From Enterobacteria phage Kha5h: a DNA stretch of 64,000 nt. The notes beneath the pieces were generated by a model, which saw only the letters and a program-made list of their open reading frames with translations, made no database searches and was not told the origin of the DNA. Positions 11,058-62,916 of the stretch are shown here, one piece after another. Location of the stretch: sequence record NC_054905.1; one strand, 5' to 3'. The position numbers and the translations under genes are program-made. Positions within the stretch are counted from its first letter, which is position 1. Every line of letters starts with the position of its first letter.

Positions 11058-11222
11058 TTACTCTTCTTTTTCTTTAGATTCCTCTTTTTTCTTTTTAGGA
11101 ATCTGCTCAGGGCCTTTATTTACTACAGCGCCTGACGTTGTTCCAGTAGAGATATTTTCAGGATTACCACCTGAATCTCCAGCGACCATATCTTCTTTAA
11201 TAAATTCTTTATATGTTTTCAT
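11058..11222 (-). CDS. small ORF (54 aa) with internal-protein-like N-terminus
   Basis: MKTYKEFIKE start resembles capsid targeting sequence; Lys/Glu-rich tail; 2 nt from gene 61 ATG. Confidence 0.4.
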   Translation of the reverse strand: MKTYKEFIKEDMVAGDSGGNPENISTGTTSGAVVNKGPEQIPKKKKEESKEKEE

Positions 11223-55342: not shown

Positions 55343-55816
55343 TTATTTGAATGATTTGACGTACTGAATAGAACCTTTACTATTCACGAAAGCGATTTTA
55401 CCATTTTTATTATACATGGTAGCAGTACGCTGATAGCCATAAGTTTGTTTACCAGATTGATAACCAACTAATGCGAAATTATCTTCACCCATTTTATTCT
55501 GTTTAGCGCGAATACGTTCATGACCGTGTGCCATAAGAACCTTAGCATCACCAGTTGAAATTGATCTACGAGTTTTTTCATCTTCAACTGTATTAACAAA
55601 GTCGTCAAATGAATCAAATTTAGCATGGGATTTATTATACAGTTTTCCATCTACTGCATAATTATATCCCTGTACATCCATCTCAACTTCTGTACCATCA
55701 TCCAATACAGCAGTGATTTTTTGACCTTTTTTAAATTTCAAAAGATCAGTAAAAGATTCAGCAATAATTTGAGAATTAATAGCTGCTTCAGTGATAAATT
55801 CTTGATATGTTTTCAT
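55343..55816 (-). CDS. internal-protein-like packaged protein
   Basis: 157 aa; N-terminus MKTYQEFITEA matches capsid targeting sequence of T4 internal proteins. Confidence 0.55.
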   Translation of the reverse strand: MKTYQEFITEAAINSQIIAESFTDLLKFKKGQKITAVLDDGTEVEMDVQGYNYAVDGKLYNKSHAKFDSFDDFVNTVEDEKTRRSISTGDAKVLMAHGHERIRAKQNKMGEDNFALVGYQSGKQTYGYQRTATMYNKNGKIAFVNSKGSIQYVKSFK

Positions 55817-56242: not shown

Positions 56243-56269
56243 AATTTCCTCCAAGTAGTTGATGAATGT

Positions 56270-56299
56270 ATAGTATCAAAGTCCTTGGAGGAAGTAAAC
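56270..56299 (-). promoter_or_regulatory. early promoter with variant conserved element, for denV
   Basis: GTTTAC-N18-TACTAT; element variant at 56257-56278. Confidence 0.55.
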
Positions 56300-56300
56300 A

Positions 56301-57541
<1,241 letters not shown>

Positions 57542-60027: not shown

Positions 60028-60204
60028 TTATACTCCGGATAGTTTGTAAACTATTTCAACATCGCCTTTTGCTGCTTTATAACCTTCAGCCCAAGATATA
60101 ACCGAGTTTTTATCTGAAGATTCAAATTCTGGCATTGGGCTTTCGCCAATGTTCACACAATATGTTTCTTCATTTTCGTCGAACCAAATAATTAAAGTAG
60201 TCAT
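60028..60204 (-). CDS. small ORF (58 aa) below track cutoff
   Basis: SD GGAG 6 nt before ATG at 60204; MTTLIIWFDENEETYCVNIG... Confidence 0.35.
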   Translation of the reverse strand: MTTLIIWFDENEETYCVNIGESPMPEFESSDKNSVISWAEGYKAAKGDVEIVYKLSGV

Positions 60205-60272
60205 TTATTTCTCCGTTTCTATATTTGTTTTGATAAGTCTATAATAACACCGTCCTTGGTGTTTGTACACAA

Positions 60273-60536
60273 TTATTTCATATTATTGAAATATTCTTCT
60301 GCGATTTCGTCGTTATCATGGTAAACTTTAGAAGACAGTTTAACATAACCTTCAGCAGTGAACATGTTAATCACAACCTTTACAGTATACCACTGACCGT
60401 CTTCATTACCCATTACTGCATAAGTTTCAAACATCGGATGATCAGGACCGATAACTTTAATATCATTCACCGTACGACCAAAATCTTCTGAAACGCATTT
60501 CATAAAGAAGTTGAACAGTTCGCCGTAATTATCCAT
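60273..60536 (-). CDS. hypothetical protein (87 aa from MDNYGELF)
   Basis: SD GGAG upstream; the track ORF's N-terminus translates the conserved promoter leader. Confidence 0.45.
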   Translation of the reverse strand: MDNYGELFNFFMKCVSEDFGRTVNDIKVIGPDHPMFETYAVMGNEDGQWYTVKVVINMFTAEGYVKLSSKVYHDNDEIAEEYFNNMK

Positions 60537-60579
60537 TTCGTTCTCCAAGTTGTTTTCTGTATCAGTAGTTGATAGTTGT

Positions 60580-60609
60580 ATAGTACCATGGAAGGACAAG
60601 GATGTAAAC
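60580..60609 (-). promoter_or_regulatory. early promoter with conserved 22-bp element
   Basis: GTTTAC-N18-TACTAT; element at 60567-60588. Confidence 0.6.
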
Positions 60610-60744
60610 CGTTTTGTGAAAAAATTTTTTAAAAAGTTTTAGGGAATTCTAGGGCAGGGAGGGGCAATTAAAAGATAGGATAATATATTATAAAGGGTAG
60701 AAACTAAATGATGCCTAGAGAGGCCTGGAAAGGCCTAGATACCA

Positions 60745-60774
60745 AAAAGCCCCAACCTTTCGGCTAGGGCTAAG
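60745..60774 (-). terminator. hairpin element downstream of internal-protein-like gene
   Basis: AAAAGCCCCAACCTTTCGGCTAGGGCTAAG; GAAA loop on mRNA. Confidence 0.5.
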
Positions 60775-60778
60775 AATG

Positions 60779-61252
60779 TTATTTGATTTGTTTAGCAGAC
60801 CAAATGCGGTCTTTAATAATTTTTTGAATGTCTTCAACATACTCAAGAGAGTGAGCATGTGGGTTATCTTTGAAACTATAAGCACGAGCCAGTTTTTGGC
60901 CTTCAGTTTTGATTACTAAAAGCTCTTTAAGGATAGCTTCATATCTGGAGATAATTCCTTTAACAATATTTTTCTCTTGTGCGACTTTAGGATCTGCTTT
61001 AGGAGCAGGTTTACCCGAAGCCTTTGCAAAAGCAGCGCCAGTAGCAACTAAACTTTTCCAAGCCATACTAACTGCATTCCCTGTAAATCCTTCGGCTTTC
61101 ATATCACGAGCAAATTGGAATCGTGATTCATCGGAAGCATCTTTATAGGAATATTTACCCGCGGCAATGGCTGCTTTTGCGACAGCTTGAATTTCGGTGC
61201 TAGATGCTTCATTTAACACCGCTTCATTTAAAAATTGAGCATATGATTTCAT
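60779..61252 (-). CDS. internal-protein-like packaged protein
   Basis: 157 aa; N-terminus MKSYAQFLNEA; late promoter upstream; hairpins on both sides. Confidence 0.55.
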   Translation of the reverse strand: MKSYAQFLNEAVLNEASSTEIQAVAKAAIAAGKYSYKDASDESRFQFARDMKAEGFTGNAVSMAWKSLVATGAAFAKASGKPAPKADPKVAQEKNIVKGIISRYEAILKELLVIKTEGQKLARAYSFKDNPHAHSLEYVEDIQKIIKDRIWSAKQIK

Positions 61253-61288
61253 CTTATTTCCTGTTTTAATTCGTGGTTTTAATATACT

Positions 61289-61296
61289 TATTTATA
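61289..61296 (-). promoter_or_regulatory. late promoter TATAAATA for internal-protein-like gene
   Basis: Exact octamer 37 nt upstream of ATG at 61252. Confidence 0.55.
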
Positions 61297-61298
61297 CT

Positions 61299-61330
61299 AA
61301 AAAGCCCCAACCTTTCGGTCGGGGCTAAGC
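61299..61330 (-). terminator. hairpin element upstream of internal-protein-like gene (near-copy of 60745-60774)
   Basis: AAAAAGCCCCAACCTTTCGGTCGGGGCTAAGC. Confidence 0.5.
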
Positions 61331-61640
61331 CTTGCGGCAACCTTGTCGGGGTTCCACCTGCTAAGGCAAGTGTTTGTACGAAACGCCGGGATTCGAACCC
61401 GGTTATTAAGCAGTTGACGCTACTCAATATTTTTAAAAGGCCATATCTCGACCATATCCGAACGTTCCGTCAAAAACGCTACTCGGCTTACGGCAAAGAT
61501 ATTTCCTCGAATCGATAATTCGGTGCGCCGTTTTTGCTGTGATATAAGGGGGCATTAACAAAACATAAAGATTTGTTAATGCCAGTCCTTAAACAGGGAA
61601 CATCAGTCCGACGACTTACCGGTAGCGACCCGGTTTCTTA
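61330..61640 (-). ncRNA. candidate stable small RNA region (possible T4 species 1/2 RNA equivalents)
   Basis: GC-rich, ORF-poor block next to tRNA cluster; isolated tRNA-like T-arm CCGGGATTCGAACCCGG at 61386-61402. Confidence 0.3.
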
Positions 61641-61988
61641 ATATTCTTTTAAAGCATCAATTTGTTCACGGCGTTTACGCCATAAATCAATTGCTTCATA
61701 CGCAGATTCAGCATTTCGAATTAGCCGGCATTTATGTAAAGACTTATGATTTTGATATTGTGTAGATAACGGAATTTTATCTAAAAGGTCTTTACGTTCA
61801 AAGTATTCGTAACCATCTAAGCCAAATGAACGATTTTTAAGAAATTGCCAATGACCAAATTCGTTTTCGACATAAACATAATCTGCATGCTGATAAAGTA
61901 AATTAATTACACGTTCAGAAATAACAGTATCATTATGATTAAAATAGAATGTTAAATCATGAACTACTAAGTAAACATTGCCTTTCAT
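61638..61988 (-). CDS. hypothetical protein (116 aa from MKGNVY)
   Basis: SD GAGGAAA before ATG at 61988; longer track ORF would overlap tRNA-Arg. Confidence 0.5.
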   Translation of the reverse strand: MKGNVYLVVHDLTFYFNHNDTVISERVINLLYQHADYVYVENEFGHWQFLKNRSFGLDGYEYFERKDLLDKIPLSTQYQNHKSLHKCRLIRNAESAYEAIDLWRKRREQIDALKEY

Positions 61989-62006
61989 ATTTTCCTCACT
62001 TATAAT

Positions 62007-62083
<77 letters not shown>

Positions 62084-62087
62084 TATT

Positions 62088-62162
62088 TGGCGGACATGCA
62101 TGGATTCGAACCATGGACCAATTGATTAACAGTCAACTGCTCTACCACTGAGCTACACATCC
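62088..62162 (-). tRNA. tRNA-Asn (anticodon GUU)
   Basis: Hand-folded cloverleaf; anticodon loop CUGUUAA; CCA encoded. Confidence 0.75.
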
Positions 62163-62166
62163 AAAT

Positions 62167-62253
62167 TGGTGGGGAGTGATGGAGTCGAACCACCCGAGTC
62201 GCAATGACAATGGATTTACAGTCCACACCGCTACCTCTACGGGATAACTCCCC
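62167..62253 (-). tRNA. tRNA-Tyr (anticodon GUA), long variable arm
   Basis: Acceptor GGGGAGU/ACUCCCC; anticodon loop CUGUAAA; CCA encoded. Confidence 0.75.
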
Positions 62254-62265
62254 TAATTCATAATT

Positions 62266-62340
62266 TGGTGGCCCTGGGTGGAATTGAACCACCATCTGGC
62301 GATTATGAGTCGCTTGCTTGAACCTTCCAGCTACAGGGCC
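62266..62340 (-). tRNA. tRNA with CAU anticodon (Ile or Met)
   Basis: Acceptor GGCCCUG/CAGGGCC; anticodon loop CUCAUAA; sits where T4 has tRNA-Ile. Confidence 0.75.
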
Positions 62341-62341
62341 T

Positions 62342-62417
62342 TGGTGCTGATTGACGGAATCGAACCGCCGACCTTCTCATTACAAGTGAGTTGCTCTACC
62401 TACTGAGCTAAATCAGC
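62342..62417 (-). tRNA. tRNA-Thr (anticodon UGU)
   Basis: Acceptor GCUGAUU/AAUCAGC; anticodon loop CUUGUAA. Confidence 0.8.
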
Positions 62418-62422
62418 AAAAC

Positions 62423-62512
62423 TGGCGGAGGCGATAGGATTTGAACCTATGAGTCGCCGGAGCGACTGCCGGTTTTCAAGACCGGTGCATTAAACCACTC
62501 TGCCACGCCTCC
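62423..62512 (-). tRNA. tRNA-Ser (anticodon UGA), long variable arm
   Basis: Acceptor GGAGGCG/CGCCUCC; anticodon loop CUUGAAA. Confidence 0.8.
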
Positions 62513-62514
62513 AG

Positions 62515-62588
62515 TCTCCATACAAGGATTTGAACCTTGGACCTCCTGATCCCAAATCAGGCGCTCTACCAAACTGAGCTACACGGAG
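62515..62588 (-). tRNA. tRNA-Pro (anticodon UGG), CCA not encoded
   Basis: Acceptor CUCCGUG/UAUGGAG; 2 nt from tRNA-Ser 5' end (dimeric precursor as in T4). Confidence 0.75.
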
Positions 62589-62597
62589 TAATTAAAT

Positions 62598-62671
<74 letters not shown>

Positions 62672-62676
62672 AAATT

Positions 62677-62763
62677 TGGTGCGAGAAGTGGGACTCGAAC
62701 CCACAAGGAAATCATTCCGCAGCATTTTAAGTGCTGTGCCTTTACCAATTTGACCATTCTCGC
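62677..62763 (-). tRNA. tRNA-Leu (anticodon UAA), long variable arm
   Basis: Acceptor GCGAGAA/UUCUCGC; anticodon loop UUAAAAU. Confidence 0.8.
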
Positions 62764-62764
62764 G

Positions 62765-62837
62765 CTGGGAATAAAGGACTCGAACCTTTGCATCTAGCAG
62801 TCAAAGTGCTATGCCTTACCAACTTGGCTAATTCCCA
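62765..62837 (-). tRNA. tRNA-Gln (anticodon UUG), CCA not encoded
   Basis: Acceptor UGGGAAU/AUUCCCA; 1 nt from tRNA-Leu 5' end (dimeric precursor as in T4). Confidence 0.75.
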
Positions 62838-62916
62838 ATTATTAACAAAGGCTCTCAAACAAGAACCCTTGATGATAGAGGGTATTAATCAGTGCGGTAT
62901 GAGTTAATAATAACAA

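Follow-up and report, generated by a model that had tools for sequence, protein, structure and literature searches.

This work concerns the interval between rnaC, the gene for the species 1 stable RNA, and e.8 in Enterobacteria phage Kha5h (NC_054905.1), as it lies in a stretch of 64,000 nucleotides (nt) that is called the window here. The interval holds a gene for a protein of 157 amino acids (aa), named ip157 here (RB32ORF132c, PHROG 2280), which is enclosed by two near-identical hairpins with the features of transcription terminators. By its sequence the window belongs to a T4-like coliphage of the genus Tequatrovirus, RB51 and RB68 being about 97% identical to it; the region 60200-62100 has matches in 788 phage records, the best of which are the Tequatroviruses JoYop, RB51, RB68, and Sf25 (96.7-97.9% identity). 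The genes around the locus are all on the minus strand, and its main features, in the order in which they would be transcribed, are these.

61377..61515, minus strand: homologue of rnaC (species 1 stable RNA), 98.6% identical to T4 rnaC over 139 nt
61294..61329, minus strand: predicted terminator T1, the rnaC-proximal hairpin copy (terminator scan and folding)
61289..61296, minus strand: T4-type late promoter motif TATAAATA (motif match)
61257..61262, minus strand: Shine-Dalgarno sequence AGGAAA, 4 nt before the ATG of ip157 (direct reading)
60779..61252, minus strand: open reading frame (ORF) of ip157
60739..60774, minus strand: predicted terminator T2, the distal hairpin copy (terminator scan and folding)
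60273..60536, minus strand: homologue of e.8, 87 aa, a conserved gene downstream of the variable interval

The two terminators are copies of one element. The sequence AAAAGCCCCAACCTTTCGG(C/T)(T/C)(A/G)GGGCTAAG occurs at 60745-60774 and 61300-61329, with 27 of 30 positions identical. The initial annotation had recognized this near identity and placed the first copy correctly, whereas its limits for the second (61299-61330) were one base too wide at each end. No further copy is found in the 64 kb when three mismatches are allowed, and none is expected from 100 shuffles. Taken as a direct repeat, the likeness reaches 36 nt (60739-60774 and 61294-61329; 32 of 36 identical) at a spacing of 555 base pairs (bp), and the pair is the only substantial direct repeat between 54 and 64 kb. 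Read on the minus strand, each copy has the form CTT-AGCCC(C/T)(G/A)(A/G)CC-GAAA-GGTTGGGGCT-TTTTT: a G+C-rich stem of 10 bp (6-7 G-C pairs) capped by the GNRA tetraloop GAAA and followed by a tail of five U residues, an arrangement present on the minus strand only. In T1 the stem-loop spans 61326-61303 (AGCCCCGACC GAAA GGTTGGGGCT; 10 pairs, 7 of them G-C, and a 4-nt loop in the terminator scan) and the tail 61302-61298; in T2 they span 60771-60748 (AGCCCTAGCC GAAA GGTTGGGGCT) and 60747-60743. The minus strand of T1 folds at -20.7 kcal/mol (z-score -3.7) against -16.0 for the plus strand, and that of T2 at -18.5 kcal/mol (z-score -3.9) against -9.7. The two are the top matches of the terminator scan, and the same hairpins have been annotated independently as terminators in two GenBank records. 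T1 begins 51 nt past the annotated 3' end of rnaC and is therefore assigned as the terminator of the tRNA-rnaD-rnaC unit; it is kept after rnaC in every T4-like locus examined. Terminator T2 starts 7 nt past the stop codon of ip157. Judged from sequence and predicted fold, both copies are strong rho-independent (intrinsic) terminators, and would be expected to stop transcription in vivo.

The way the copies vary points to the RNA as the constrained form. T1 and T2 differ by three transitions in the 5' arm, each facing a G or a U of the 3' arm, so that pairing survives through G.U pairs, in the minus-strand RNA only. The 3' arm GGTTGGGGCT is the same in all 49 hairpin copies collected from T4-like loci, and the 5' arm in Tequatroviruses (CGACC, TAGCC, CAGCC, CGATC, or CAACC) changes by transitions only, opposite G or U. 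Over these copies 95.6% of cells are paired and every change is one-sided. Such drift is the pattern expected under an RNA-pairing constraint, for which it provides modest statistical support; with a 3' arm that never varies, a covariation test could give no significance, and its shuffle control was uninformative. Terminator function alone would account for this strand-specific wobble pattern, a point to which we return below.

The motif TATAAATA lies 2 nt after the U-tract of T1 and 36 nt before the ATG of ip157, in agreement with the initial annotation, which had credited the gene with a late promoter of its own. T4 late promoters are read by the gp55/gp33/gp45-dependent polymerase, and the presence of the motif would place ip157 among the genes expressed late. 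In every locus that has the gene the motif is invariant and at the same offset, with variable bases next to it. It is outside the repeat, and there is no -35/-10 pair at the promoter after T1. Within the window the motif occurs 7 times, all on the minus strand, against a shuffle mean of 10.7, a count under the mean, as might be expected if stray late promoters are avoided. The gene runs from an ATG at 61252 to a stop codon at 60779-60781; 474 bp of the 555-bp unit are coding, with a G+C content of 38.2% (34.5% for the window). With strong minus-strand terminators predicted on both sides and the promoter only 2 nt beyond the first U-tract, the arrangement is that of an insulated late-transcription cassette, as had been proposed from the sequence at the outset.

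Whether the cassette behaves as a unit can be judged from its distribution. The comparison loci were drawn from IMG/VR, metagenomes, and GenBank; contigs are referred to by L numbers, and three GC-rich contigs unrelated to the locus (L052, L056, and L058) were discarded from the metagenome scan anchored on rnaC. ip157 is variably present, being absent from phages T4, T2, T6, PST, and RB10. In these five phages and in the Mosigvirus phi25-307 the site is empty, with one hairpin, no gene, and both outer flanks intact. In T4, the sequence on the e.8 side of the single hairpin is that found beside terminator T2 in the window, and the sequence on the rnaC side is that found beside T1. The contents of the interval differ between loci but always start at the rnaC terminator. 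Four states of occupancy are seen: no gene; ip157 only, as in the window; only a 187-aa gene that also begins with a targeting sequence (MKTYAEFLTEAAKL...; contig L057 and the isolate ESh36); and both genes in tandem (L042, L049, and L059). Other late units at the site encode targeting-sequence proteins of 205 and 126 aa and a membrane protein of 184 aa, and every unit at the site comes with a (T/A)ATAAATA motif and ends in a terminator of its own. Different genes thus do occur at the site, yet their boundaries are common, and the presence/absence comparison with hairpin-precise boundaries that the initial annotation had called for yields a single hairpin and no gene in the empty relatives.

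The frequency of these states was estimated from 50,697 phage records, in which all counts are approximate. The locus is present in about 576-582 records, and about 78 of these have the uninterrupted empty junction, a count backed by single-piece matches. The junction of rnaC to ip157 is found in 387 records and that of ip157 to e.8 in 275. The queries were 101 nt long, and the search can join two pieces across a 557-bp cassette, which inflates the counts for the rnaC-ip187 (48) and ip157-ip187 (123) junctions. The ip157 family is represented in 510 records, other genera included, and the 187-aa gene in 165; none of the 510 has two copies of ip157. Among sequenced Tequatroviruses, roughly two thirds have ip157 and one quarter the 187-aa gene, both of which are missing from T2, T4, and T6.

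In Mosigvirus-like phages the site also has a late-promoter unit for the 184-aa protein, which is predicted to be a membrane protein and has no targeting leader (1636-2190 in L045/L047, 2326-2880 in L046; also in L008 and L061). The position of this unit relative to the targeting-sequence gene varies, some genomes having it in front and others behind. It follows that the site is not reserved for internal proteins and that the order of the units is shuffled.

Evidence on how units are exchanged comes from the breakpoints. The hairpin links two upstream contexts (rnaC and the 3' end of ip157) with four downstream ones (the ip157 promoter, the 187-aa unit, the e.8 spacer, and a further gene module), and seven of the eight possible combinations have been seen. 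The near-isogenic metagenomic contigs L057 and L059 are set apart, in about 2.9 kb, by five substitutions, one 1-nt indel, and one 557-bp indel, both ends of which are the identical 32-nt repeat CTTAGCCCCGACCGAAAGGTTGGGGCTTTTT. On the rnaC side, over 265 nt, the nearest relatives of phages T2, RB10, and phi25-307 are genomes with a filled site (99.2% identity), and one haplotype, 100% identical in L042, L053, L057, and L059, is found with three states of occupancy. The empty sites are accordingly polyphyletic and form no clade. Variants of the 5' arm (CGACC and CAGCC) trade proximal and distal positions between genomes (L041, L051, and L060), which indicates exchange between hairpin copies. 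These data, together with the relatives that have one hairpin and an empty site, support the suggestion made with the initial annotation that the repeats mediate cassette exchange.

The same data bear on a simpler explanation, namely that the hairpins are terminators and nothing else, that their likeness is due to duplication or convergence, and that genes come and go by other means, for example by illegitimate recombination as for morons. Besides the wobble pattern, two observations fit this explanation: Mosigvirus-like loci retain the gene with a different downstream terminator, and near-identical terminator halves occur with other flanks in unrelated viral contigs (L005, L006, L009, and others), so that a hairpin of this type can recur. 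If the hairpins were only terminators, however, breakpoints would have no reason to fall on the repeat in every comparison, nor would the 557-bp indel be exactly one repeat period, seven of eight flank combinations be joined via the same 32 nt, or the CGACC and CAGCC arms change places. We consider the explanation quite improbable. As to the recurrence itself, the near-identical terminator AAAAGCCCCAACCTTTCGGCC(G/A)GGGC is present in contigs L005, L006, L009-L013, L018, L019, L027-L030, L033, L035, L036, and L038, which are viral and have flanks entirely different from those of this locus; either an independent origin or a wider sharing of the hairpin among enterobacterial phages would explain it.

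Exchange at the hairpin could also reflect a dedicated recombination site, attC-like or the target of a structure-specific nuclease, in which folded DNA is read by a specific enzyme. An array of single-gene units ending in imperfect hairpins does resemble an integron, and the same idea was raised by the authors who described PeSL elements (PMC2839356). Moreover, two different terminators at this site have inverted loops, which show that the DNA hairpin is at times a template or a substrate. In KAW1E185 (L002, 3549-3570) the distal copy reads AGCCCCAACC-TTTC-GGTTGGGGCT, with a perfectly palindromic stem and a loop that is the reverse complement of GAAA, and the loop of the terminator of the 187-aa gene is TAAAT in some contigs and ATTTA in others (L043, 2768-2786, and L042, 2780-2798, differ in this way). 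Inversions of this kind are what template switching, or recombination inside a quasi-palindrome, leaves behind. However, the ORFs and annotations of the locus include no recombinase gene, the units, in contrast to integron cassettes, have promoters of their own, and the differences between copies keep the RNA fold and weaken the fold of the plus-strand DNA. General recombination in T4 already acts on short homologies, according to the work of Singer (1982) as far as it is related in PMC2839356. A dedicated site seems slightly less probable even than terminator function alone.

A third explanation attributes the spread of the cassette to SegB, a homing endonuclease encoded in the tRNA cluster, with the hairpin being incidental. 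Homing entails co-conversion of flanking DNA, and in T4, T6, PST, RB68, and KAW1E185 the segB gene, or what remains of it, is found at a distance of 0.4-1.5 kb. The window itself, however, is without segB and its tRNA cluster is unbroken, the segB carriers T4, T6, and PST have the empty site, and co-conversion tracts end variably, so that indels bounded by repeats are not predicted. Of the explanations weighed here this is the least credible.

The protein encoded by the cassette resembles the internal proteins of T4 at its N-terminus. The first ten residues, MKSYAQFLNE, compare with MKTYQEFIAE, the capsid targeting sequence (CTS) of T4 IPII/IPIII, and Y4, F7, L8, and E10 are kept, so that the initial annotation was right in taking 60779..61252 for a real, CTS-bearing gene. 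Residues 4 and 7 are the main determinants of targeting, and residues 8 and 10 those of processing (PMC9026906). The gp21 protease cleaves after L/I-x-E (PMC9026906), and ip157 has L-N-E motifs ending at E10 and E15. When the window is translated in all six frames, the targeting motif, loosely defined, occurs only four times, always where a minus-strand ORF begins (60779-61252, 55343-55816, 56301-56582, and 11058-11222). ip157 is basic, with an isoelectric point of 9.5 and 20 Lys residues. Its AlphaFold model is of moderate confidence (pLDDT 71) and all-helical, predicting a helical bundle and a long helical hairpin. Homologues are found in T4-like phages only.

The three other ORFs with the motif are as follows. 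That at 55343-55816 (minus strand) encodes a DUF7412 protein with the leader MKTYQEFITEA, whose 157 aa equal in length the product of the PST gene annotated as ipIV. The ORF at 56301-56582 (minus strand) has 93 aa, a targeting-like leader, and a second motif, (I/V)LNEA, in common with ip157. The ORF at 11058-11222 (minus strand) has 54 aa and starts with MKTYKEFIKED. The ip157 family itself is modular: a conserved N-terminal domain (residues ~15-75) is followed by a Pro/Lys-rich linker, and in homologues from Klebsiella and Yersinia phages the C-terminal helical part is swapped for unrelated sequence.

From the leader and the late promoter, ip157 is most likely packaged, processed, and injected. 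The alternative is that the leader is inherited or coincidental, and that the protein is no injected internal protein, acting instead late in the infected cell or as a core or scaffold component that is degraded. A helical bundle with a helical hairpin, as in the predicted model, is also typical of scaffold-like proteins, and ip157 is 95-99% conserved across most Tequatroviruses, unlike the classical internal proteins, which diverge fast. Yet all four residues mapped as important for targeting and processing are kept, the predicted promoter driving the gene is a late one, the protein is basic and Lys-rich as internal proteins are, the neighbouring cassettes at the site also start with MKTY..F(L/I).E, and the targeting motif is far rarer than chance allows. 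On this balance a role other than that of an internal protein is unlikely, though it has more in its favor than any of the three alternatives considered above for the hairpins and the spread of the cassette.

The general picture that emerges is of an insulated late cassette within a polymorphic array, whose terminator serves as the crossover point and whose product is targeted to the capsid; we give this reading a probability of about 0.75. T1 would end the tRNA-rnaD-rnaC transcript, and directly behind it would lie a self-contained late unit consisting of the TATAAATA promoter, a ribosome-binding site, ip157, and T2. Terminator T2 would halt late transcription ahead of the early e.8 promoter, so that together the two terminators would isolate the late unit from the early/middle stable-RNA unit on one side and from the early e.8 unit on the other. 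Since ip157 carries the 10-residue targeting sequence of T4 internal proteins, it would most likely enter the prohead core, be trimmed by the gp21 protease after Glu10, and accompany the DNA both in packaging and, by injection, into the next host. The rnaC-e.8 interval is a polymorphic array of terminator-ended units; through homologous recombination or copy-choice between the terminator copies, whole units would be deleted, inserted, and reshuffled while their neighbours stay undamaged. Whole units would be exchanged with hairpin-precise ends because every unit ends in the same terminator of about 32 nt. The exchange might take place within one genome, between co-infecting phages, or via an excised circle, by a logic analogous to that proposed for PeSL cassettes. 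What we observe is the layout of the locus, its strand-specific fold, the pattern of occupancy, and the breakpoints; that termination takes place in vivo, that expression is late, that the protein is packaged and injected, what it targets, and how recombination proceeds are all inferred.

Several observations weigh against this reading. In Mosigvirus-like phages a homologue of ip157 directly follows the rnaC terminator but ends in an unrelated terminator, the gene being kept without flanking repeats; for this reason the sequences suggest that ip157 has long occupied the site and that only Tequatroviruses have the repeat configuration. The hairpin copies of the Mosigvirus type (5' arm CTTCC or CTCCC) have their two central pairs broken, and since none of the 49 copies has a two-sided compensatory change in the stem, the evidence from covariation is weak. 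The repeat is short (32-36 nt) and confined to this locus, not dispersed as PeSLs are, and the occupancy data fit either loss in T4-type genomes or gain in the others. The protein has no Pfam match, no match to a solved structure, and no informative fold match: Pfam returns zero matches, PHROG 2280 is a family of unknown function, and Foldseek against PDB and BFVD finds only homologues of ip157 itself and non-significant helical matches. Every database name for it is 'hypothetical protein', and the literature yielded no virion-proteomic report on it. T4, T2, and T6, which are the phages with data on transcript ends, virion proteomes, and recombination, are without ip157.

Beyond the cassette, the locus has the following features.

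61522-61638, minus strand: rnaD (alignment to T4)
60711..60739, minus strand: three tandem AGGCCT-type units of 10 bp, TCTAGGCCTT TCCAGGCCTC TCTAGGCATC (sequence search)
60580..60608, minus strand: predicted early-type promoter, TTTACA-17 nt-TG-TACTAT (promoter scan, consensus match only)

The rnaC homologue is the last gene of the tRNA-rnaD-rnaC unit, in concurrence with the annotations of T4, RB68, and Aplg8, and rnaC and rnaD sit downstream of ten tRNA genes. The tRNA cluster (62007-62837, minus strand) comprises genes for Arg, Asn, Tyr, Met, Thr, Ser, Pro, Gly, Leu, and Gln tRNAs and is unbroken, whereas T4, T6, and PST have 8 or 9 tRNA genes in a cluster split by the segB homing endonuclease gene. 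Between rnaD and tRNA-Arg lies an ORF (61638-62036, minus strand) of 132 aa from a TTG start or 116 aa from an ATG. It belongs to PHROG 3355, a family of unknown function, and at its 3' end it adjoins or overlaps the homologue of rnaD. Relative to T4, in which the two RNA genes are adjacent, this ORF is a second insertion nearby. The segments 61360-61399 and 62073-62112 are 70% identical and include GGATTCGAACC; the first covers the annotated 3' end of rnaC (61377) and 17 nt beyond it, and the second the tRNA-Arg/tRNA-Asn junction. Their likeness suggests a tRNA-like T-arm in the stable RNA or at its end. An Rfam scan of 60500-62900 at a permissive threshold matched tRNAs only, with no match for the hairpins, the spacer, or rnaC and rnaD.

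On the e.8 side, the AGGCCT-rich sequence that the initial annotation had found odd does consist of tandem units, which have no second occurrence in the window. The stretch opens the resident rnaC-e.8 spacer, is present in T4 as well, and is outside the cassette. Among phages its position is conserved and its sequence variable. A conserved RNA hairpin was considered for it and rejected, as the stretch pairs in some phages and is broken in T4 and RB10; the rnaC-e.8 spacer folds no better than its shuffles (z-score -0.84). Besides the AGGCCT units and the e.8 promoter the spacer contains an A/T-rich tract. The predicted early-type promoter has this A/T-rich tract upstream and is placed to drive e.8 and the genes downstream. 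The segment 60564-60588, which covers its -10 region and start, forms a 25-nt direct repeat (84% identical) with 56254-56278 in the e-proximal ip locus, probably a reflection of related early promoters.

Among known systems, the closest parallel is with the PeSL and PmSL elements of T4-like phages, intergenic elements of a promoter and a stem-loop terminator that flank single accessory ORFs in plastic regions and make insulated units of them. There, one T4-like phage has two elements around an ORFan and a relative has a single element; excised circles of PeSL cassettes have been detected, and exchange by recombination between elements has been proposed (PMC2839356, PMC4122927). The same contrast of two elements with an ORF and one element without it is found here, between the window and T4, T2, T6, RB10, and PST, and between L059 and L057. 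The differences are several. The promoter is late (TATAAATA) here, and sigma-70-like early or MotA-dependent middle in the known elements. Only the terminator (~32-36 nt) is repeated, with the promoter outside the homology; the terminator stem is strong and GC-rich, is closed by a GNRA loop, and is followed by a U5 tail. PeSLs form a dispersed family, whereas this element has two copies in 64 kb and occupies one or two places per genome record. The cargo here consists of targeting-sequence proteins.

The morons of lambdoid phages are similar in that they have their own promoter and terminator, lie between genes that are adjacent in relatives, and are expressed separately (Hendrix and colleagues, as discussed in PMC2839356); a slightly higher G+C content (38.2% vs 34.5% here) is a further likeness. 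Morons are believed, however, to be acquired by illegitimate recombination without conserved flanks, and are typically expressed from the prophage (PMC2839356). Here the flanking terminator is a direct repeat, the host phage is strictly lytic, and the promoter is late. With the attC arrays of integrons the locus shares a linear arrangement of single-gene units with imperfect hairpin ends, and the gain, loss, and reordering of genes unit by unit. It differs from them in having no integrase, in a promoter for each unit (integron cassettes are promoterless), and in a hairpin that is constrained as coding-strand RNA and has a U-tract.

The cargo connects the site to the hypervariable ip loci, where non-essential genes that share only an N-terminal targeting sequence are swapped among relatives (Repoila 1994, as described in PMC2839356 and PMC12373910), and which adjoin promoter/stem-loop elements. 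The elements at those loci are early promoters with weak AT-rich stem-loops (PMC2839356). Literature and annotations name two such loci, beside e and beside 57B, to which rnaC-e.8 would add a third; the literature searches turned up no account of targeting-sequence genes in the rnaC-e.8 interval, and they were likely overlooked because T2, T4, T6, and PST are empty there. Wherever the genes of this site are annotated, they are called hypothetical. Ip1-3 inhibit distinct GmrSD type IV restriction enzymes, and the 2025 study assigning these targets tested, of the remainder, ip4-10 only (PMC12373910). Because Ip1-3 block GmrSD enzymes (PMC12373910), ip157 and the 187-aa protein are obvious candidates for injected anti-defence factors, in the case of ip157 by likeness to Ip1-3. 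A bolder proposal, which we regard as tentative and on the whole doubtful, is that rnaC-e.8 is a third ip locus in the form of an integron-like array of late-expressed, injected anti-defence cassettes, with the rnaC terminator as a dedicated crossover or template-switch site. If so, ip157 and the 187-aa proteins would inhibit defence systems as yet unmatched to any internal protein. The locus offers unusually clean natural evidence for short regulatory repeats as linkers of module exchange in T4-like genomes. The linker idea, framed for early and middle promoters, would thereby be extended to a late unit that is linked through its terminator only, and a third site for proteins targeted to the capsid is indicated. 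The style of gene shuffling is one already known from phages and the current understanding of it is not overturned; what the comparison adds is a newly described site at which it operates.

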